Below are positions 38,147-48,693 of a stretch of 64,000 bases of DNA, piece by piece. How positions within the stretch are numbered: the first letter of the stretch is position 1; every line of letters begins with the position of its first letter. The notes under the pieces are model-generated. The model did no database searches and was not told the origin of the DNA. It worked only from the letters and a program-made list of their open reading frames with translations. This DNA comes from an uncultured bacterium (GTDB lineage Bacteria; Chloroflexota; Anaerolineae; B4-G1), in NCBI GenBank assembly GCA_965612745.1, contig CBFDTD010000001.1:6937-70936 (forward strand). Reading direction: 5' to 3'. Made by a program: the position numbers and the translations under genes.

Positions 38147-39166
38147 ATGTCTGACCAGCAACGAAACCGATCTTCTAACATCTTGCTTGATATAAGAGGC
38201 CTTACTACCCGTTTCTACACTGAGGACGGGGTAGTACATGCCGTCAATGGGATCTCCTACACCATGCAGGAGGGGGATACGCTAGGAGTCGTCGGCGAGA
38301 GCGGTTGCGGCAAGAGCGTCCACGCCCTCTCAATTATGCGCCTCATCCCCAGTCCCCCGGGCAGAATCGAAGAGGGGGAGGTCTGGTTCGACGGGCGTGA
38401 CCTGTTAAAGGTGAGCGAAGCGGATATGCACCGCGTGCGTGGGGCAGAGATCGCCATGGTCTTTCAGGACCCAATGACCTCTCTCAACCCGGTGTACACC
38501 GTCGGCTTCCAGATTATGGAGGCGCTCAAACTTCACCAGGGGATGGACGAGGCACAGGCGCGGGAACGAGCCGGGGAACTGCTGGCGATGGTCGGCATTC
38601 CGGAGGCCCGTGAACGGCTGAATGACTATCCCCACCAATTCTCCGGCGGCATGCGGCAGCGGGCGATGATTGCTATGGCCCTCTCCTGCAACCCTAAACT
38701 CCTTATCGCCGACGAGCCAACCACTGCCCTGGACGTCACCATCCAGGCCCAGATCGTGGACTTGGTGAAGCGGCTTCAGGAGAAACTGGGGATGGCGGTG
38801 ATGTGGATCACTCACGACCTGGGAATCGTGGCCGGACTGGCAAAGAAGGTCAACGTTATGTACGCTGGCTACATCGTCGAGCGCGGCAACGTGAAGGACA
38901 TCTACGGGCGACCGCGCCACCCCTACACGATGGGGTTGCTGGGGTCGCTGCCCCGGCTGGACGAAGCACCGGGCACCAAACTGATCTCCATCCCGGGTCT
39001 GCCACCCGATCTGATTGACCTGCCACCGGGCTGCCCCTTCGCTGCCCGATGTACTTACGCGGTAGACCAGTGTTTAGAAGAAATGCCGCCGCTAGAGGAG
39101 ACGGATGGGGAGGATCACACTGTGGCCTGCTGGCGGTGGGAAGACGTCGCAGGGGAGAGAGCATAA
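38147..39166 (+). CDS. Peptide/nickel ABC transporter ATP-binding protein (OppD/DppD-like)
   Basis: Walker A (GESGCGKS), the signature motif (FSGGMRQR) and a C-terminal oligopeptide-type extension are present. Confidence 0.85.
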
Positions 39167-40158
39167 TGACCGCTGAGAGTGAACCCTTGGTTCAGGTCCA
39201 TCACCTTAAGAAGTATTTCCCCATTACCCGGGGGATCATCATCCAGCATCACATCGGCGATATCAAAGCAGTGGATGATGTCAGTTTCGATATTTACAAA
39301 GGAGAGACGTTGGGGTTGGTCGGGGAGACCGGCTGTGGCAAAACCACCGTGGGCCGGACGATGCTCCGGCTGTACGAACCGACGGACGGACAGGTCATCT
39401 TCGACGGGGTAGACCTGGCTGCGCTGCGGAGGGACGAGATGCGACGCATGCGGCGAAGGATGCAGATGATCTTCCAGGACCCTTACGCTTCCCTCAACCC
39501 TCGTATGACGGTCGGTAATATTATTGCCGAGCCGCTGGAGGTGCACGGGGTTGCCCACGGGAAGGAGAAGCGGGAGCGGGTACAGGAACTCCTGCGGCTG
39601 GTGGGGCTCAATCCCTATTTCGTCAACCGTTACCCGCACGAGTTCTCCGGCGGGCAGCGGCAGCGCATCGGCATCGCTCGTGCCTTGGCCCTCAACCCTG
39701 ACCTCATCATCTGCGACGAGCCCATCTCCTCACTGGACGTATCCATCCAGGCCCAGGTGGTCAACCTGCTGGAGGACCTGCAGGACCGATTGGGTCTGAC
39801 CTATCTGTTCATCGCCCATGACCTGAGTATGGTGCGTCACATTAGCGACCGCATGGCGGTGATGTATTTGGGCAAGATCGTGGAGTTGGCCGACCGGAAT
39901 GAGATCTACTTGAACCCACTCCATCCCTACACCCAGGCGCTGATGTCGGCGGTGCCGGTACCAGACCCGGTGGTTGAGGAGAAGCGTCAGCGCATTATCC
40001 TCAAGGGGGAGATACCAAGCCCGGCTAACCCGCCTGAGGGTTGCAATTTTAACACCCGCTGCCCGGTGGCTATAGACACCTGCTTTGAGGTGGAGCCGGA
40101 GTTCATTGAGGTGCAAGAGGGGCACTTCTGTGCCTGTCACCTGGTTAAAGGCCAGTAG
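39166..40158 (+). CDS. Peptide/nickel ABC transporter ATP-binding protein (OppF/DppF-like)
   Basis: Walker A (GETGCGKT) and the signature motif (FSGGQRQR) are present. The start overlaps the previous stop (TAATG). Confidence 0.85.
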
Positions 40159-40470
40159 ACTGGTGAATTGGTAAGAGTAGCAGCACCTCGATCTATCAAT
40201 TTACAGGAGTTACGCACTTGCGGCCAGAGGTCAACCACAGAGACACGGAGGACACGGAGAAACACCGAGAAAGGCGAGAAACTCCGCGGAACTCTGTGCT
40301 CTCTGTGCCTCCGTGGTGAGAATCTATGAAACTGCGTAGGTCCTGTCAATTTACTGATTGCAATGTACCGACGAAAGGAGGTGATGCATCGGGGAGAGAG
40401 AAGTGCATAGTCTATGTAAACAATGTGTGACAAAGTCTATCCCAATCTCTAACTCTTAAGGAGGAGAAAA

Positions 40471-42195
40471 ATGCTTGCTAAGAAATGGCACGTTCTTGCC
40501 GCCGCTGTAGTGGTGGGCAGCCTGTTGCTTTCGGCCTGCGCGCCGAAGGAGGTCGTTAAGACCGTGGTGGTCACATCACCGCCCGAAGTGGTGACTGAGG
40601 TTGAGGAGGTTGAGGTGACTGTCCCGCCCGAGGTCATCGAGATCACCCCGACACCGGGGCTGGGCGCTGGCTGCACCTACAATGCCTACCGCATGGGCTG
40701 GGTGATGGACTATTCTGACGCCAACAACATCGTCAACGAGGTCTTCCACCCAGATTCGCCGTTCCAGTACACCTTCTGGGACGATGATACCTTCCGTGAC
40801 CTGGTGGACCAGGCGCTGGTGGAGACCGACCCTGATGCCCGCGCGGCGCTGTGGCGACAGGCGGAGAACATCCTGGTGACCGACTACGCCGCGGTCATCC
40901 CCATCTTCCACTACGACCGCACCGCCCTGGTCAATCCCGATATCGAGTACGAGTTCCCGCCCTTTGGTCAGGCCCATTACATGAAGTGGCGGCTGCCTGA
41001 GGGGAGGGACACCCTGCGGGTCCGTCTTGGCACGGAGCCGCCCACGCTGGACATCAATCTGGCCACCGACACCACCTCCCACGCGGTGCTCAACCAACTG
41101 ATGGAGGCTCCCTACCGCTATAAGGGGGACGGCACCATCGAGCCGGCGGGCGCCGAGTCCTACGAGGTGTCGGAGGATGGGACGGTCTACACCGTGCACC
41201 TGCGCCAGGACGCCACCTGGTCCGACGGCGAGCCGGTGGTGGCCCAGCACTACGTGGACGGGGTCCTGCGGCTCCTGAACCCGGAGACGGCGGCGGAGTA
41301 CGCCTACGTGATGTACTATATCTCCGGCGCTGAGGCCTACAACACTGGCGAGACCGACGATCCCTCCACCGTGGGCATCCGCGCCGTGGACGACTACACC
41401 CTAGAGATTACGCTCGATAAGCCCCAGGCCTTCTTCGACAGCATCCTGGCCTTCTTCACCTTCTATCCGGTTCGCCTGGATGTCATCGAGGAGTACGGCG
41501 ATCTGTGGACCGAGCCAGGGAACTTCGTGGGGAATGGCCCCTACGTGCTGACCGAGTGGGCTCATGAGGACCACTTGGTCATCGAGAAGAACCCCAATTA
41601 CCACGACGCCGATCAGGTGACCATCGAGCGGGTGGAGTACCCCATCATCGTCGAGGATGCCACGGCGCTGGCCGCCTATGAGCGGGGTGAACTGGACGTC
41701 AGCGGCTACCCCTCAGAAGAACTGCCGCGCATCCTGGAGGAGATGCCGGAGCACTTCGTCCGCCTGCCCTACCCCGGCACCTACTACATCGGCCTGAACA
41801 CCCTCCGGGCGCCCACGGACAACCTGAACTTCCGCAAGGCCCTGGCCTCCTCCATTGACAAGCGGGCCATCCTGGACTCGGTGCTCAACATGCCCTGGCG
41901 TCTCGATGCCTGTGGCGTGATCCCGCCGGAGATCCCCGGTTACCAGGGCTGCGGTGAGGTCGGCTACCAGTTCGACCTGGATGCTGCGCAGCAGTACCTG
42001 CAGGCAGCGCTGGACGAGATGGGCATTGAGGATCCAGGTGACATCCGCCTCAATCTGTGGTTCAACCGCGGCAACGAGGACGTCATCGAGTCAGTTGCCG
42101 AGCAATGGGAGACCAACCTCGGTATCAGGGTCTACGTGGTCAACATGGAGTGGGGTGCTTACCTGCAGACCCTCGACGAGTGCAACAACCCGTAG
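40471..42195 (+). CDS. Family-5 (peptide/nickel) substrate-binding lipoprotein that appears circularly permuted relative to canonical DppA/OppA
   Basis: A lipobox (LLSACAP) is present. Residues about 60-185 look like the C-terminal end of SBP_bac_5 (compare DppA ...GWTGDNGDPDNFF...IIAHSTVFEPVRKEVKGY). Residues about 190-574 start like the canonical N-terminus (TLRVRLGTEPPTLD...). They end at MEWGAYLQTLDE, the point where the canonical C-terminal segment would begin. Confidence 0.75.
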   Translation: MLAKKWHVLAAAVVVGSLLLSACAPKEVVKTVVVTSPPEVVTEVEEVEVTVPPEVIEITPTPGLGAGCTYNAYRMGWVMDYSDANNIVNEVFHPDSPFQYTFWDDDTFRDLVDQALVETDPDARAALWRQAENILVTDYAAVIPIFHYDRTALVNPDIEYEFPPFGQAHYMKWRLPEGRDTLRVRLGTEPPTLDINLATDTTSHAVLNQLMEAPYRYKGDGTIEPAGAESYEVSEDGTVYTVHLRQDATWSDGEPVVAQHYVDGVLRLLNPETAAEYAYVMYYISGAEAYNTGETDDPSTVGIRAVDDYTLEITLDKPQAFFDSILAFFTFYPVRLDVIEEYGDLWTEPGNFVGNGPYVLTEWAHEDHLVIEKNPNYHDADQVTIERVEYPIIVEDATALAAYERGELDVSGYPSEELPRILEEMPEHFVRLPYPGTYYIGLNTLRAPTDNLNFRKALASSIDKRAILDSVLNMPWRLDACGVIPPEIPGYQGCGEVGYQFDLDAAQQYLQAALDEMGIEDPGDIRLNLWFNRGNEDVIESVAEQWETNLGIRVYVVNMEWGAYLQTLDECNNP

Positions 42196-42386
42196 CCTCC
42201 GGGCTACCCAGAGGTTTCCCTGGGGTTCCCGCGAGGGAACCCCAGGGTCCTTATCTCCAAAGGTTGGGGCCATCCACGAACATGATCACGAGTCCACGAA
42301 TTCACGAGTGATATATATGGTTCGCAGATTCGTGACCAGGTTTGTGGGAGTTGATCCCGGGGGGAGAGATTTCTAAGGAGGAGATC

Positions 42387-43520
42387 ATGCAGAGATTTAT
42401 TTTACGGCGAATCCTGTGGAACATCCCGGTGTTGATCCTGATCAGCGTCGTTACCTTCGGAATGATGCAACTTGTGCCGGGAGGGCCCTTCACGGCGGGC
42501 GGGGGAGGCCGACCAATCCCGCCGGAGATCCGGGCTAATATGGAGGCCAAATACGGGCTCGATAAGCCAATCTGGCAACAGTACCTGAACTATATGGGGC
42601 GGCTGATCTTCCACTTCGACTTCGGTCCCTCCCTGCGGAACCCTGGCCGCACGGTCAACGCGATGCTCTTCGGTGGCAACTTCCTGGTGGACGTGCTGCG
42701 GGAGCAACTGAAGGCCACCTTCGGCACGGAGGCCAGTTCGATGACCTTTGCCGAGTCTCCCAGTATCTTCGATTCCTCCGCCCTGGTGGTGAAGACTAAT
42801 GGGGAAGTGGTGGGCTACATCGCCATCACCGGGTCCGACCGGCTCGAGGCCATCAGACGCTTCCTGTCTTTGGCGCCCATTATGGTCTCAGCCCAGGTGG
42901 GGCTGGTCTCCATCGGCCTGGCCCTTTTCGTCGGCATTCCCCTGGGCATCGTCTCTGCTCTGAAGCAGAACTCGTGGGTGGACTATAGCGCTATGTTTGT
43001 CTCCATGCTGGGGGTCTCTATCCCTAACTTCCTTCTTGGTATCGGATTAATTCTGGTCTTTGCCCTTTGGTTGGGATGGCTGCCTACCTATGGCTGGGGG
43101 GAGGACTGGAAGCAGGTGATTATGCCGGCCATCACCTTGGGCACGGGTGGTATGGCCATTATCGCCCGGCTGACCCGGGCCAGCATGCTAGAGGTGATCC
43201 GCGCCGACTACATCCGTACTGCCCGGGCTAAGGGGCTGGCGGAGCGGATCGTGATCGTCCGTCACGCACTGAAGAATTCTCTCATCCCAGTGGTCACTGT
43301 CATGGGGCCGATGATGGCCGGTTGGCTCACCGGCTCCTTCCTGGTAGAGTGGGTTTTCTCCATCGGTGGCATCGGCAAGTTCTTCGTCAGCGCGGTCACC
43401 AACCGGGACTATACCCTGATTATGGGTACGATTCTGATCTATTCGGTGGCCCTGGTTGTGTTCAACCTGCTGGTGGATATCGCTTATGGGTTCATTGACC
43501 CGCGCATTCGGTTTGAGTAG
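42387..43520 (+). CDS. ABC transporter permease (DppB/OppB-like) with a roughly 90-aa insertion after TM1
   Basis: The N-terminus ILRRILWNIPVLILISVVTF and the EAA-like loop are present. The start was set after the aaggagg RBS. Confidence 0.8.
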   Translation: MQRFILRRILWNIPVLILISVVTFGMMQLVPGGPFTAGGGGRPIPPEIRANMEAKYGLDKPIWQQYLNYMGRLIFHFDFGPSLRNPGRTVNAMLFGGNFLVDVLREQLKATFGTEASSMTFAESPSIFDSSALVVKTNGEVVGYIAITGSDRLEAIRRFLSLAPIMVSAQVGLVSIGLALFVGIPLGIVSALKQNSWVDYSAMFVSMLGVSIPNFLLGIGLILVFALWLGWLPTYGWGEDWKQVIMPAITLGTGGMAIIARLTRASMLEVIRADYIRTARAKGLAERIVIVRHALKNSLIPVVTVMGPMMAGWLTGSFLVEWVFSIGGIGKFFVSAVTNRDYTLIMGTILIYSVALVVFNLLVDIAYGFIDPRIRFE

Positions 43521-43586: not shown

Positions 43587-44585
43587 ATGGCTGAGAGTGC
43601 TTCTGAGCGACGCAGGCGGGAAGAGGAGGCCCAGTTCGCCGAGCGAGGTGTAAGCCTGTGGCAGGACGCCTGGCGGCGATTGCTGCGCAACCGTATGGCG
43701 GTGGCAGGGCTGCTCTTTATTGGTTTCCTGGTCTTTTGCTTTATCACCGCCGACTTTCTTCCACCGTACAGTTACCGGGAGGCCGACTACGAGAACACGC
43801 GCATCGGCCCGCGCTGGCCCGACCATATTTTCGGCACCGATAAACTGGGGCGAGACGTGTTTAGTCGAGTGTGGTGGGGCACACGTGTTTCTCTCACTGT
43901 TGCAGTCGTTGGTTCGCTGACGGCGCTGGTCATCGGTGTCACTTACGGGGCCATCTCCGGCTACCTGGGTGGCCGGATAGATAACCTCATGATGCGCTTT
44001 GTGGACGTGATGTATGGCTTCCCCACCCTCCTTTTCATCATCCTGATTATGGTGGTCCTGCCGTCGGAGACCGCTATCCAGGGTATGATCAATATCTTCA
44101 TCGCTATCGGTGTCGTGGGGTGGATGGGGATGGCCCGCCTTGTCCGGGGGCAGTTCCTCTCCCTGCGAGAGAAGGAGTTCGTCCTGGCGGCGCGAATGGT
44201 CGGTGCCGGCCCGGCCCGTATCATCTCCCGTCACCTGTTGCCCAACAGCCTGGGTCCGGCCATCGTCTCGCTGACGCTGGGTATCCCGAGCCTGATCCTG
44301 ACCGAGGCGGTGTTGAGTTTCATTGGTCTGGGCGTACCACCGCCGTACCCCAGTTGGGGCCAGATGGTGTCCGAAGGGTGGCGCGGGCTGCGGGCCACGC
44401 CCCACCTGACCGTCTTCCCCGGCCTGGCGATTAGTCTGACTATGCTGGCTTTCAACTTCCTGGGGGACGGTCTGCGGGACGCGCTGGACCCGACAATGCG
44501 GGGCACCGCTTTGGTCCGCGCAGCACGACGGAAGAAGCGGCGAGCGAGGAGGGCAGCGCGTAGAGCGGCAGCCAAGGCCGCTTAG
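43587..44585 (+). CDS. ABC transporter permease (DppC/OppC-like)
   Basis: The DppC pattern is present. The C-terminal tail is basic (RRKKRRARRAARRAA). Confidence 0.8.
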   Translation: MAESASERRRREEEAQFAERGVSLWQDAWRRLLRNRMAVAGLLFIGFLVFCFITADFLPPYSYREADYENTRIGPRWPDHIFGTDKLGRDVFSRVWWGTRVSLTVAVVGSLTALVIGVTYGAISGYLGGRIDNLMMRFVDVMYGFPTLLFIILIMVVLPSETAIQGMINIFIAIGVVGWMGMARLVRGQFLSLREKEFVLAARMVGAGPARIISRHLLPNSLGPAIVSLTLGIPSLILTEAVLSFIGLGVPPPYPSWGQMVSEGWRGLRATPHLTVFPGLAISLTMLAFNFLGDGLRDALDPTMRGTALVRAARRKKRRARRAARRAAAKAA

Positions 44586-44702: not shown

Positions 44703-46400
44703 ATGAAGCGGTGGGGATACTGGATCATCGTCGGAGTGGTGTCACTGGCCTTGGCTGCCCTGATCGGATGGGCCACCACTTACACTCCGCTGTTGACGCC
44801 CTCTGCGTCGGAGGAGTGGAGCCGGGGGCGGCTCCTCGGCGTGACGCCGGTGAGTATTCCGGTGGATGTCCAGGCGGCCCCCGATGGTGGGGTGTTCCTA
44901 ACCTGGGTGGACCTCGACGACCGGCTACACGTGGTGCGATTGGGGACAAGCGGGCAGGTCATCGCAGACTGGACGCCTGGCGTGGGAGCGGACATCCCAC
45001 GGGAACCGCGTCTCCTTGTGGGACCGGGAGACGAGATTCATCTTATCTGGCGGGAGACGGGTGGGGGACGCTCACTCTTGACCTATGCCCGGCTGAGCAG
45101 CGGGGCCTCTGTGCAGGTTGGCCCGCTCTCCCTTTCGCTGCCGGGGGATGAGGCCCAATCCCCATGTCTGGCTTTCGACCGTCAGGGCGAGGTTGAGGTC
45201 TTCTGGGTCGGCCAGGCGGGTATCTACCAGGTTGCCCTCAGCGCCGAGGGGGAGGTGCAGGGCGACCCTGTCCTGCTGGTCGAAGGTGGTGAGGACGTCA
45301 GTATCCAGGTGGACCGAGAGGGCATCTTCCATCTCACCTGGCTACAGGGGATGGGGCCAAACGAGAGGGTAATCTATTATGCTTTACTTGATCCAGAGCA
45401 GGGGGACTTGAGCCAGCCGGAGGAGATGAGTAGGGTCTTTCTACGTACCGGTCAGCGTGTGGAAAGTCTCGCCGTGGGCATTGATAGCAGTACGGGCTAC
45501 ATCTTGTGGGTTATCCAGGACTTGAGGGACATCAGTTCCAGAGCCCAGTATGCTTTCTTTCCTCTTGAGATACCGCGGCAGAAGAAGGTCAGGACCCTGC
45601 AGCTGGACGAGGGGAGCGATCCGCTGAGCCTTTGGGCTATGCGCGGCCAGTACGAGACGTTGCTGGTCGCCCTGACTGAGACCACTATGACGCCAGATGG
45701 CCCACAACTTCAAATCGGCGTCATCGGCTTGCGCGGCGAGCAGACGTCAGAGAATGCCGTTTGGGCAGCGGTTGAAAATCGGGGATCAACGACCGTCGTT
45801 GACCAGAGCAGTTGGCCGGAGGATCAGTACATCGTCACTGCTTCGGATCGCCCCTCCCTCAAGCCAAGTTTGGCAGTGGATACACAGAGCCATCTCCATC
45901 TGGTCTGGCTGGAGACCGGGGGCTTCGGAGTGTACCGTGTGGCCTACGCCAGCACCGCTCCAGGGGTGAAGGAGAATTATAATGCCTTGACCTTGTGGGA
46001 TGTAGTCAATGGTGCTTTGAGCGTCGCTATGCAACTTTTCCTGGCAGTGGGGCTGGCACCGGTCCTGGCTGTTGGTTGGTCTCTACTTCCTCTGATGTGG
46101 TTGATCGGCTATCATCTGGTCACCGGGTATGAGACCCTGACGGTACCGGGAGCACGAGTGGCCCTGGGCGTATCTGTGTTGCTGGAAGTGGTGTGCACGT
46201 ATTTGCTCTCTCCTTATCGAAGCGGCGTGCCTGGAATGATTCGGTGGATTGTGCCGCTTGCTGTTGCTGCTGTTGCTCTACTGTTAACCATGCTGTATCT
46301 GCGGAAGCGGGATGAGCAGTCCTTATTTGGGGCTTTCTTTGTCTTCGCTCTCATCTACGGTTTTTTTCAAGTGGCGTTTGTGGCACTCCTGCATTTGTAG
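44703..46400 (+). CDS. Hypothetical membrane protein with an N-terminal TM helix, a roughly 400-aa extracytoplasmic repeat (beta-propeller-like) region and a C-terminal four-TM bundle
   Basis: There are recurring strand motifs (HLIWRETGG, VEVFWVGQAG, FHLTWLQGMG, GYILWVIQD, LHLVWLETGG), and the ends are hydrophobic. No family was recognised. Confidence 0.45.
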   Translation: MKRWGYWIIVGVVSLALAALIGWATTYTPLLTPSASEEWSRGRLLGVTPVSIPVDVQAAPDGGVFLTWVDLDDRLHVVRLGTSGQVIADWTPGVGADIPREPRLLVGPGDEIHLIWRETGGGRSLLTYARLSSGASVQVGPLSLSLPGDEAQSPCLAFDRQGEVEVFWVGQAGIYQVALSAEGEVQGDPVLLVEGGEDVSIQVDREGIFHLTWLQGMGPNERVIYYALLDPEQGDLSQPEEMSRVFLRTGQRVESLAVGIDSSTGYILWVIQDLRDISSRAQYAFFPLEIPRQKKVRTLQLDEGSDPLSLWAMRGQYETLLVALTETTMTPDGPQLQIGVIGLRGEQTSENAVWAAVENRGSTTVVDQSSWPEDQYIVTASDRPSLKPSLAVDTQSHLHLVWLETGGFGVYRVAYASTAPGVKENYNALTLWDVVNGALSVAMQLFLAVGLAPVLAVGWSLLPLMWLIGYHLVTGYETLTVPGARVALGVSVLLEVVCTYLLSPYRSGVPGMIRWIVPLAVAAVALLLTMLYLRKRDEQSLFGAFFVFALIYGFFQVAFVALLHL

Positions 46401-46749: not shown

Positions 46750-48693
46750 ATGCTGTACCAACGGCGATGGGTCTTTGTCGCTTTCGCCGCAGCGCTCCTG
46801 CTGTTTGCTGCCTGCGCTCCCCAAATCATAACCGTCACCGTGACGGCGCCACCGGAGACAGTCGTCGTCACGGCTACACCTTCACCTACACCTCTACCCA
46901 CCCCCTTGCCCCCGCCGGGGCCTAAGGTGCTCACCGTCTGCTTGGTTGGCGAGCCCGATACACTGTACCTCTACGGTGGCTCTCGTATGGCGGCTACGCG
47001 GCACGTGATGGAGGCGCTCTACGATGGCCCCATTGACCACCTCAACTATGCTTACCGGCCGGTGATCCTGCAGAAAGTGCCCAGCATCGCCGATGGTGAT
47101 GCGGTCACGCGCACCGTGCGTGTGCGGGAGGGCGACCGCGTGGTTGACGCCGAGGGTGCAGTCGTGGAACTGACAGAGGGGGTGCGTATCCGTCCGCCCG
47201 GCTGCCACGCCGATGAGTGCACGGTCGAGTTCGAGGGCGAACCGCTGTGGATGGAGAGAATTGAGGTCACGTTTGCCCTGCGGGAGGATGTCACCTGGGC
47301 CGATGGCGAGCCGCTCACGGCGGCCGATTCGGTCTTCGCTTTCCAGGTGGCCTCCGATCCCGCCACGCCCGGCAGCCGCTACCTGGTGGAACGCACGGCC
47401 CGGTATCGTTCCCTGGGCAAGTGGCGCGTAAAGTGGGTCGGGCTGCCTGGATTCATTCCCTCCACCTACTTTTTGAACTTCTTCACCCCCCTGCCGCGCC
47501 ATCAATTAGAGGGCCGTTCTCCCGCCGAGTTGTTGCAGGCCGATGAGACCCGGCGCTATCCCCTAGGTTGGGGACCGTTCGTCGTCGAGGAGTGGATACG
47601 GGGAGATCACATCACGCTCTCCCGCAATCCCCATTATTTCCGCGCCGCCGAGGGGCTGCCCTATCTGGACCAGGTGGTGTTCAAGTTCACCTCCGGCGCG
47701 CCGGAGATGATCGCCCGTCTCCTCTCAGGCGAGTGCGACATCGGCGCTCAGGATGCCGACTTCGAGCCGTTCATGCCGCTGCTGGTGCAGGCTGAGCAGC
47801 AGGGCCTGCTGAAGATGATTTCCGCGACCGGCAACGGGTGGGAGCACATTGACTTTGGCATTGACCCCGTTCCTGACTACCGGCGGGCGGATTTCTTCGG
47901 GGACGTGCGGGTGCGACAGGCTATCGTCCAATGCATTGACCGCCAGGCTATCGTGGACGAGGTCGCTTATGGCCGCAGCGTCGTGCCAGATAGTTACCTG
48001 CCGCCGGAGCATCCCCTCTACGCGGGCAACGATCTGGTGCATTGGGACTACGATCCGATGGCCGGACGGGCACTGCTGGAGGAGGTGGGGTGGCTGGATG
48101 AGGACGAGGATGGCGTGCGCGAGGCGCACCGCGTTCAAGGGATCCGTATCGGCACACCGTTCGAGATCACGCTCTTAACGTCTTCGGAGAGTACGGTCTC
48201 GCAACAGGTGGCGCGCATTGTCAAAGCCAACCTAGCAGATTGCGGCATCCGCGTCAATTTGGAGGCCCGGCCTTCGTGGGAATTCTTCGCCGACGGGCCG
48301 GAAGGGCCTCTCTTTGGTCGCCGATTTGATCTGGCCGAGATGGCGTGGCGGTTTGAGGACATCCCTCCATGTGAGCACTACATGTCTTCTGAGATACCGG
48401 ACAAGGGGCACTGGCACGGGAGCAATCCCACCGGCTACAGTAATCCCGACTATGATGCAGTGTGCCGGGCAGCACTCCAGGCACTGCCTGGCACCCGGGA
48501 GTACGAGAAATATCATAAGCAAGCACAGGTCATTCTCTCGGAAGAACTTCCCACCATCCCGCTCTTCATATGGCCGCGGATCGCTCTAGCCCGACCGGGG
48601 GTGCTTAACTTCGCGCTGGATCCCACCGCACAGAGCGAGTTGTGGAACATCGAGGTGCTGGACTTGCAAGACGTGCCACCGGCTAACCGCTGA
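46750..48693 (+). CDS. Family-5 substrate-binding lipoprotein in the canonical domain order
   Basis: A lipobox (LFAACAP) and a PT linker are present, and both the N- and C-terminal SBP_bac_5 patterns are found. Confidence 0.8.
   Translation: MLYQRRWVFVAFAAALLLFAACAPQIITVTVTAPPETVVVTATPSPTPLPTPLPPPGPKVLTVCLVGEPDTLYLYGGSRMAATRHVMEALYDGPIDHLNYAYRPVILQKVPSIADGDAVTRTVRVREGDRVVDAEGAVVELTEGVRIRPPGCHADECTVEFEGEPLWMERIEVTFALREDVTWADGEPLTAADSVFAFQVASDPATPGSRYLVERTARYRSLGKWRVKWVGLPGFIPSTYFLNFFTPLPRHQLEGRSPAELLQADETRRYPLGWGPFVVEEWIRGDHITLSRNPHYFRAAEGLPYLDQVVFKFTSGAPEMIARLLSGECDIGAQDADFEPFMPLLVQAEQQGLLKMISATGNGWEHIDFGIDPVPDYRRADFFGDVRVRQAIVQCIDRQAIVDEVAYGRSVVPDSYLPPEHPLYAGNDLVHWDYDPMAGRALLEEVGWLDEDEDGVREAHRVQGIRIGTPFEITLLTSSESTVSQQVARIVKANLADCGIRVNLEARPSWEFFADGPEGPLFGRRFDLAEMAWRFEDIPPCEHYMSSEIPDKGHWHGSNPTGYSNPDYDAVCRAALQALPGTREYEKYHKQAQVILSEELPTIPLFIWPRIALARPGVLNFALDPTAQSELWNIEVLDLQDVPPANR

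Follow-up and report, generated by a model that had tools for sequence, protein, structure and literature searches.

Can a family-5 substrate-binding protein (SBP) occur in nature with its chain opened at an internal site and its old ends joined, and still serve as a conserved receptor? The question is raised by a gene at positions 40471–42195 on the + strand of a 64,000-nucleotide stretch of contig CBFDTD010000001.1, from an uncultured Anaerolineae bacterium (the whole stretch is called the window here). A sequence-only reading of this stretch had proposed that the product, an OppA-type family 5, cluster C lipoprotein of 574 aa plus stop, carries in residues about 60–185 the segment that normally forms the C-terminus of such proteins, and that the remainder begins like a canonical N-terminus. 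We find that the product is a circularly permuted family-5 SBP, as confirmed by sequence, by conservation and by a confident predicted fold. We also consider it likely that it works as a membrane-tethered oligopeptide receptor of the adjacent OppBCDF importer, with the permuted chain closed by a Cys68–Cys571 disulfide and with a probably single origin in the Chloroflexota.

The swapped order appears directly in searches with phmmer against PDB sequences. Residues 177–568 align to positions 17–414 of the B. subtilis OppA chain (8are_A, 246 bits), and residues 70–160 align to positions 419–508 of the same chain (32.6 bits, independent E 3e-7). Y. pestis OppA (2z23) shows the swap as well, with residues 185–568 falling on 18–404 and residues 69–158 on 408–495, and the alignment to DppE (8ay0) is likewise swapped. 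The NCBIfam OppA model NF011684 matches in two stretches, the best pairing residues 184–569 with 43–431 of the 543 model positions and the C-terminal part of the model falling on residues ~70–160. The chain ends ...MEWGAYLQTLDEC571NNP at a point where canonical proteins run on into ...YxAxRxGWxxDY, and a continuation of this type is found instead after the linker, at residues 68–81. The two parts, module A (OppA 408–517) and module B (OppA ~14–404), are complementary and the old termini are joined, which is the definition of a circular permutant. These alignments bear out the proposed assignment of the two parts, with boundaries that were right to within a few residues.

Membership in family 5 is clear from Pfam PF00496 (SBP_bac_5), which scores 234 bits against a cutoff of 32.4 and pairs residues 223–567 with model positions 2–333 of 368. 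Two PF00496 matches with swapped model coordinates had been expected and a single collinear stretch was obtained; the check is uninformative because the model spans only the "middle" of family-5 SBPs, and the swap becomes visible only with full-length models or sequences. A paralog at 46750–48693 (+ strand, 647 aa), also a family-5 SBP lipoprotein, does have the normal order ascribed to it. It aligns collinearly to the C-terminal ends of full-length models, with residues 246–606 on 182–526 of the 556 positions of Opp4A and residues 270–629 on 206–527 of the 535 positions of DppA.

The permuted order is common to the whole family. A word-indexed search of 5.8 billion protein clusters listed 120 clusters with 59–100% identity to the query, most of them covering 100% of it. 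Module A (query residues 65–175, the canonical C-terminal module) and module B (residues 177–574) were located separately in each, and the order was A then B in 120 of the 120 listed clusters (90%-identity clusters). For P0001, whose protein is 100% identical to the query, a look-up of encoding contigs had no record. Twelve permuted loci (L001–L012) are found in GTDB species-representative genomes, all of them metagenome-assembled genomes (MAGs) of Anaerolineae, Anaerolineales or Thermoflexia within the Chloroflexota. The survey of orthologs that had been suggested as a check therefore returned the same permutation throughout.

The site at which the chain was opened is best seen by comparison with relatives of canonical order. 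An exhaustive HMMER search of 1.84 billion representatives, followed by module mapping, identified such relatives at 54–63% identity (P0121, P0123, P0126 and P0129, plus P0136, P0139 and P0144). Those from Chloroflexota metagenomes (P0123, P0126, P0129, P0144 and P0121) carry the same two loop-flanking cysteines and the shared motifs ...PPFGxPHxxxW (C-terminal) and ...LRVxLGTEPPTLD (N-terminal), but have ordinary termini and run continuously through a C-x5-39-C loop, precisely where the permuted proteins are broken. Their chain reads ...YLDxLDxC-(5 to 9 residues; 39 in P0144)-C-TYNAYRMGW..., and in the more distant canonical OppAs P0152 and P0157 both cysteines are missing and the connection is shorter. 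The two aligned blocks of 8are_A are separated by only ~4 residues (414 and 419), and therefore the cysteines stand at the base of an inserted loop and should be neighbours in space. As judged from these alignments, the permuted chain is opened within this pre-existing loop of domain III, beside the ligand residues R74, W77 and D80. The protein is extracytoplasmic, and the pattern of cysteines makes it very probable that the pre-existing loop was closed by a disulfide.

Both cysteines are retained in the permuted family. Cys68 (40672–40674, + strand), the first residue of the fold, is invariant in the 116 of 116 homologs in which the column is occupied, and its proposed disulfide partner Cys571 (42181–42183, + strand), three residues before the C-terminus, is kept in 119 of 120. 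The N-N-P tail that follows, with the stop codon (42184–42195, + strand), is what remains of the ancestral Cys-Cys loop's first half and is comparable to DNP, NNT or HDNP in canonical relatives. The possibility that the two cysteines are a compensatory novelty acquired after the cut was considered and rejected, since the canonical relatives already carry both.

The other junction can be defined with similar precision. Canonical relatives end in ...PPFGxPHxxxW plus 0–5 residues (...YWRLPAS in P0144), and their mature bodies start with ...G(T/P)LR(V/Y)xLGT(E/D)PP(T/S)LD. The query reads PPFGQAHYMKWRLP-EGRD-TLRVRLGTEPPTLD at this place, such that the old ends are bridged by ~4–6 residues relative to the termini of P0126, P0129 and P0144. 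The new connector itself (residues ~177–181, EGRDT) occupies 40999–41013 on the + strand, between the old C-terminus PPFGQAHYMKWRLP and the old N-terminus TLRVRLGTEPPTLD.

The remaining parts of the gene are those of an intact lipoprotein. A strong Shine-Dalgarno sequence, AAGGAGGAG, is read from the sequence at 40459–40467 (+ strand), 4 nt upstream of the ATG. The signal peptide and lipobox (40471–40539, + strand) consist of a hydrophobic helix, residues 4–20 in the structural model described below, followed by L20-S21-A22-C23, which fits the lipobox [LVI][ASTVI][GAS]C; Cys23 is kept in 109 of 120 homologs. Residues 24–67 (40540–40671, + strand) form a disordered tether rich in V, E, T and P, which is the least conserved region of the protein (58–75% identity among close orthologs). 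Module A (residues 68–176; 40672–40998, + strand), the canonical C-terminal module, contains the last part of domain III and the last segment of domain I and carries R74, W77 and D80. Module B (residues 182–571; 41014–42183, + strand), the canonical N-terminal and middle part, contains domains I, II and I and then most of domain III, and carries W561 (OppA W397).

The structure prediction that had been suggested, an AlphaFold2 run with a 60-sequence family alignment, gave a confident, OppA-like model with a mean predicted local distance difference test score (pLDDT) of 86.7 and a predicted template modelling score (pTM) of 0.83. Residues 1–66 are disordered (pLDDT <50 in the tether), module A has pLDDT values of 88–97, and the connector exceeds 90. 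The sequence and fold matches are all cluster C peptide or nickel binders. In S. enterica OppA, domain I comprises residues 1–44, 189–269 and 487–517, domain II runs from 45 to 188 and domain III from 270 to 486 (PMC6305025). By alignment, the cut falls between OppA residues 404 and 408, that is, in domain III, and would place both new termini in that domain. The chain would pass between the lobes twice, at ~149/150 and ~435/436, which is as many crossings as in canonical OppA, and long strands are predicted at both places (residues 142–154 and 429–442 of the AlphaFold2 model). The sequence-only reading had envisaged altered lobe dynamics as a possible consequence of the permutation; an unaltered count of hinge crossings would speak against any large change of this kind.

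The binding pocket is also accounted for. In OppA, Asp419 holds the peptide by its N-terminal amine, and Arg413, Trp416 and Gly415 make contacts with the ligand (PMC5736914, PMC6305025). D80, R74, W77 and W561 of the query align to D419, R413, W416 and W397 of 2z23, the peptide-anchoring residue among them, and are conserved in 120, 114, 115 and 117 of 120 homologs, respectively. With the equivalents of the ligand residues conserved in 114–120 of the 120 homologs, the pocket is retained. The tether joins the fold 6–12 residues ahead of the ligand-contact residues.

From these elements we propose the following arrangement. The protein would be exported and lipidated at Cys23, and the ~45-residue disordered tether would enter the fold at Cys68 in domain III, directly before the strand with R74, W77 and D80, residues expected to hold the N-terminal amine and the backbone of the peptide. 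The chain would then finish domain III, cross the hinge to reach the final element of domain I and pass through the ~5-residue connector into the former N-terminal strand, after which it would run through domains I, II and I, cross the hinge a second time and end at Cys571 in domain III. Cys571 should lie near Cys68 in space because both formed the base of a short loop in canonical ancestors, and a disulfide between them most likely holds the broken loop shut, which would leave the wall of the binding pocket intact.

The genes around the permuted SBP indicate what the receptor may serve. Upstream on the + strand, in the same operon, are an oppD-like ATPase gene (38147–39166) and an oppF-like ATPase gene (39163–40158), both with ABC_tran and oligo_HPY domains; downstream are an oppB-like permease gene (42387–43520, with a likely start at MQRF... 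as in orthologs and a listed open reading frame (ORF) start at 42342) and an oppC-like permease gene (43587–44585, OppC_N and BPD_transp_1), also on the + strand. Two permeases and two oligo_HPY ATPases thus flank the SBP gene, which is the gene context of an Opp-type importer. The oppD-oppF-SBP-oppB-oppC order of the window is repeated in 10 of the 12 permuted loci (L002–L006 and L008–L012); of the other two, L001 is truncated on its upstream side and L007 has no opp genes beside it. Both in the window and at these 10 of 12 loci, the permuted gene is the only SBP gene within the complete oppDF-SBP-oppBC operon. Transport receptors are typically recognised by this arrangement, a sole SBP in a complete opp operon. 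A conventional function is most likely, and peptide transport is the role that the operon and the retained pocket would suggest.

Permutation at other sites was surveyed among the best 150 representatives. Two full-length permuted lipoproteins start near query residue 300 (P0122 and P0244), two others start near canonical residue ~365 (P0240 and P0267), and one lipoprotein is cut within module A (P0239). Several of them recur on many contigs, and a member of the P0267 cluster is found on 16 contigs of up to 260 kb. In all of these the old C-terminus is joined to the old N-terminus by connectors that vary in length and sequence, and because the connectors differ, the other permutants arose separately. 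Circular permutation seems to be recurrent in family-5 SBPs. P0244 and P0239 have a similar connector, EKW...ILxxxTGGSGDxPTxDP, despite their different cut sites. The permuted domain with the cut site of the present family (type 1) is also found C-terminal of Ser/Thr kinase domains (Pfam PF00069/PF07714 + PF00496) in three proteins of 868–899 aa (P0063, P0109 and P0112), in which the permuted SBP part is presumably extracellular.

One could go further and regard family-5 SBPs as a natural hot-spot of recurrent permutation, with at least four cut sites in tethered lipoproteins and with selection acting on where the tether or transmembrane helix enters relative to the cleft and to the translocator-docking face. 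We think this doubtful. Under it, tandem B-A-B-A fusions (see below) would be plausible intermediates and the disulfide-closed loop would have pre-adapted the type 1 cut site. If it were true, the position of the tether, 6–12 residues away from the Asp that anchors the ligand, could provide a mechanical coupling between binding and tether, the permuted domain would have been reused as an extracellular sensor of Ser/Thr kinases, and an insertion of ~60 residues in OppB (core clade) might be a co-adapted docking element.

A related possibility is that the permuted domain is mainly a signalling or sensor module, and that the permutation was selected because the new N-terminus couples ligand binding to a membrane-anchored partner. 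In its favour, the permuted domain is fused to kinase domains in three proteins, L007 stands without nearby opp genes, and the new N-terminus enters the fold 6–12 residues before the ligand-contact residues. Nevertheless, only 3 of 120 clusters, a small minority, are such fusions, and in the window and 10 of 12 loci the permuted gene has the place of the transport receptor described above. We therefore consider a primary role in signalling improbable and return to the tethered oligopeptide receptor as the preferred reading.

How did the permuted receptor originate? In a neighbour-joining (NJ) tree of 133 proteins, with sequences re-ordered to B+A, one clade (bootstrap 70/100) unites all type-1 permutants, the distant P0131 and P0135 among them. 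It is nested in a larger clade (bootstrap 100/100) in which every member, whether canonical or permuted, carries the two junction cysteines. The probable order of events is that the Cys-closed loop was inserted first and that a single permutation then opened it. The permutation would have arisen, probably once, in a Cys-loop OppA-like lineage of the Chloroflexota (Anaerolineae/Thermoflexia), with fusion of tandem copies and subsequent loss of the outer parts as the most likely route. Tandem B-A-B-A fusions with 27–34% identity to the query are known from our search (P0132, P0137, P0148, P0149, P0167, P0174 and P0223), and several adjacent SBP genes are common in opp loci (e.g., L036, L050, L063, L068 and L074). 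The tandem set as a whole has two to four complete family-5 units per polypeptide, with four in P0128 and P0130. A route through fusion and truncation is plausible because such fusions exist and adjacent SBP genes are common, and retention of the signal peptide would have needed an in-frame deletion that fused the tether to the loop. The tandem duplication with loss of both outer ends put forward in the sequence-only reading is in this sense plausible, all the more as the other permutants also join the old termini.

Alternatively, the N-terminal module could have been recruited from a different gene by domain shuffling between SBP lineages. Such a possibility was raised for the permuted part of the Treponema pallidum protein MglB-2, where the similarity is only 13% (PMC4990184), and the adjacent SBP genes of opp loci such as those just listed would be able to recombine. 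In the present case, however, the nearest canonical relatives of module A are also those of module B, at comparably high similarity (146 bits for A and 487 for B with P0123, 143 and 517 with P0121, 126 and 411 with P0129), and each module bears its own half of the lineage-specific Cys-Cys loop. Recruitment from another lineage is thus very improbable. Fusion of recently duplicated paralogs of the same lineage would be indistinguishable from permutation of a single gene, and we treat the two as equivalent models.

Both modules are under purifying selection. In unsaturated pairwise comparisons with orthologs, the ratio of nonsynonymous to synonymous substitution rates (dN/dS) is 0.14–0.29 for module A (0.14–0.28), for module B, across the junction and for the whole mature protein. 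A repeat scan of the window found no repeats and no duplication scars, and a scan for promoters and terminators gave nothing exceeding the shuffled expectation. The termini are conserved to the residue, the family members ending 2–3 residues past Cys571 and up to 8 residues past it in the distant P0131 and P0135. Although the members come mostly from MAGs and some cluster members are fragments, an artefact of assembly or gene calling, or a pseudogene (a chimeric contig or a decaying rearranged gene), is excluded by the order shared among 120 independent clusters and 12 species-representative genomes from independent studies, the low dN/dS in both modules and over the junction, and the lack of scars, and the intact ORF with its Shine-Dalgarno sequence and lipobox and the residue-exact termini argue the same way.

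Some of our results weigh against the proposed interpretation or limit it. Aligners that preserve sequence order span at most 376–414 of the ~508 folded residues, which is expected of a permutant and is not positive proof of one. The protein also fails the OppA equivalog test, with 249 bits compared to a cutoff of 947 for NF011684 (the E. coli OppA equivalog model) and no full-length collinear match, and judging by these scores the substrate specificity would not be confidently transferable. The monophyly of the permutants is only moderately supported (70/100 in the NJ tree). Finally, the Cys-loop clade yielded no close tandem-fusion intermediate, and the fusions seen are just 27–34% identical.

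Compared to known proteins, the arrangement A-B differs from the order B-A of canonical OppA, MppA and DppE (cluster C; PDB 8ARE, 2Z23, 3TCF and 4TOZ). The permuted chain starts at canonical position ~408 and ends at ~404 plus 3 residues, and its termini are in domain III rather than in domain I, and therefore the lipid tether attaches beside the binding cleft. The closest described analogue is T. pallidum Tp0684 (MglB-2), a glucose-binding lipoprotein proposed as a permuted "Type Ic / Cluster Bc" protein (PMC4990184). MglB-2 is likewise a natural permutant of an ABC-transporter ligand-binding protein and a tethered lipoprotein; it remains a functional binder, and the authors of the study raise, as speculation, a link between permutation and tethering (PMC4990184). 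The present protein is an analogue of MglB-2 and not a member of "Cluster Bc": MglB-2 is a Type I / cluster B sugar binder, whereas the present protein is a predicted cluster C peptide binder. In MglB-2 the three N-terminal strands have moved to the C-terminus and there is a fourth hinge crossover (PMC4990184), whereas here the C-terminal module has moved to the N-terminus and the crossings would number two. The permuted part of MglB-2 has ~13% identity and a disulfide-closed cut site is not described for it (PMC4990184), whereas homology to canonical relatives is clear for both modules of the present protein. Periplasmic binding proteins that were permuted by engineering for biosensors follow the same principle, in that new termini are tolerated once the old ones are linked (PMC6335823). 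They are laboratory constructs, mostly of maltose-, ribose- or glucose-binding proteins, and the present one is natural, conserved and cut in a loop that is probably bridged by a disulfide.

The literature search turned up no description of a naturally permuted OppA or cluster C SBP, only TpMglB-2 and the engineered permutants. The Chloroflexota proteins are a conserved and previously unremarked permuted family, with TpMglB-2 as the nearest described precedent. The source annotations ("oligopeptide transport system substrate-binding protein", "ABC transporter substrate-binding protein" or "hypothetical protein") point to an annotation blind spot, as the database names are ordinary and the Pfam "middle" model cannot reveal the rearrangement. 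As a case of permutation in a large three-domain binding protein, the family is natural, conserved and well bracketed phylogenetically, with canonical sisters at ~55–63% identity, and it is a clean system for studying how chain connectivity affects SBP folding, stability and open/closed dynamics. The family further suggests that a loop probably closed by a disulfide can be a pre-adapted site that tolerates a break in the backbone, which could be useful for permuted or split SBP biosensors. Moved out of domain I, the tether now lies at the edge of the binding cleft, which also bears on how tethered receptors dock on ABC translocators.

Several minor observations concern the genomic neighbourhood. 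The OppB of the window has an insertion of ~57–67 residues, at about residues 110–177 of the 392-aa ORF, in the extracytoplasmic loop that separates the first transmembrane helix from the core. L002, L004 and L011 share this insertion, and the canonical OppBs of L018, L028 and L074 lack it. It might be a docking or co-adaptation element; that it is a requirement of the permuted SBP was rejected, as it is absent from the deeper permuted group (L009 and L010). At the 3' side of oppC, an ORF of 565 aa (44703–46400, + strand) has no Pfam match; a transmembrane segment at its N-terminus is followed by a long extracytoplasmic region and by transmembrane helices at the C-terminus. This ORF is kept at the same post-oppC position in L002, L004, L005 and L012, with 40–60% identity. 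The paralog at 46750–48693 has Opp4A as its best NCBIfam match (143 bits, below the cutoff), and genes homologous to it are situated close to the permuted operon in L009, L010 and L011. Canonical Cys-loop proteins in species-representative genomes (L013–L015 and L061) have no adjoining opp permease or ATPase genes. One Anaerolineales MAG, CAYUIS01, holds both L007 (permuted, 63% identity, no opp neighbours) and L013 (canonical Cys-loop, 53%), and therefore both architectures coexist in one genome.

Among the relatives, a set of giant proteins of 1.9–3.9 thousand amino acids (P0121, P0133, P0134, P0136, P0138–P0142, P0145–P0147, P0150, P0151, P0153, P0160 and P0164) each embed one Cys-loop SBP5 domain of canonical order, with 40–63% identity to the query; the flanks in P0121 resemble beta-helix and FN3-type repeats. 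The permuted protein itself has a second cysteine pair, Cys481 (41911–41913) and Cys494 (41950–41952), in the loop RLDAC-GVIPPEIPGYQG-C. The two co-vary: both are present in 105 members, and the 15 members without Cys481 (14 with Tyr, 1 with His) also have no aligned Cys494, a pattern that suggests a second disulfide.

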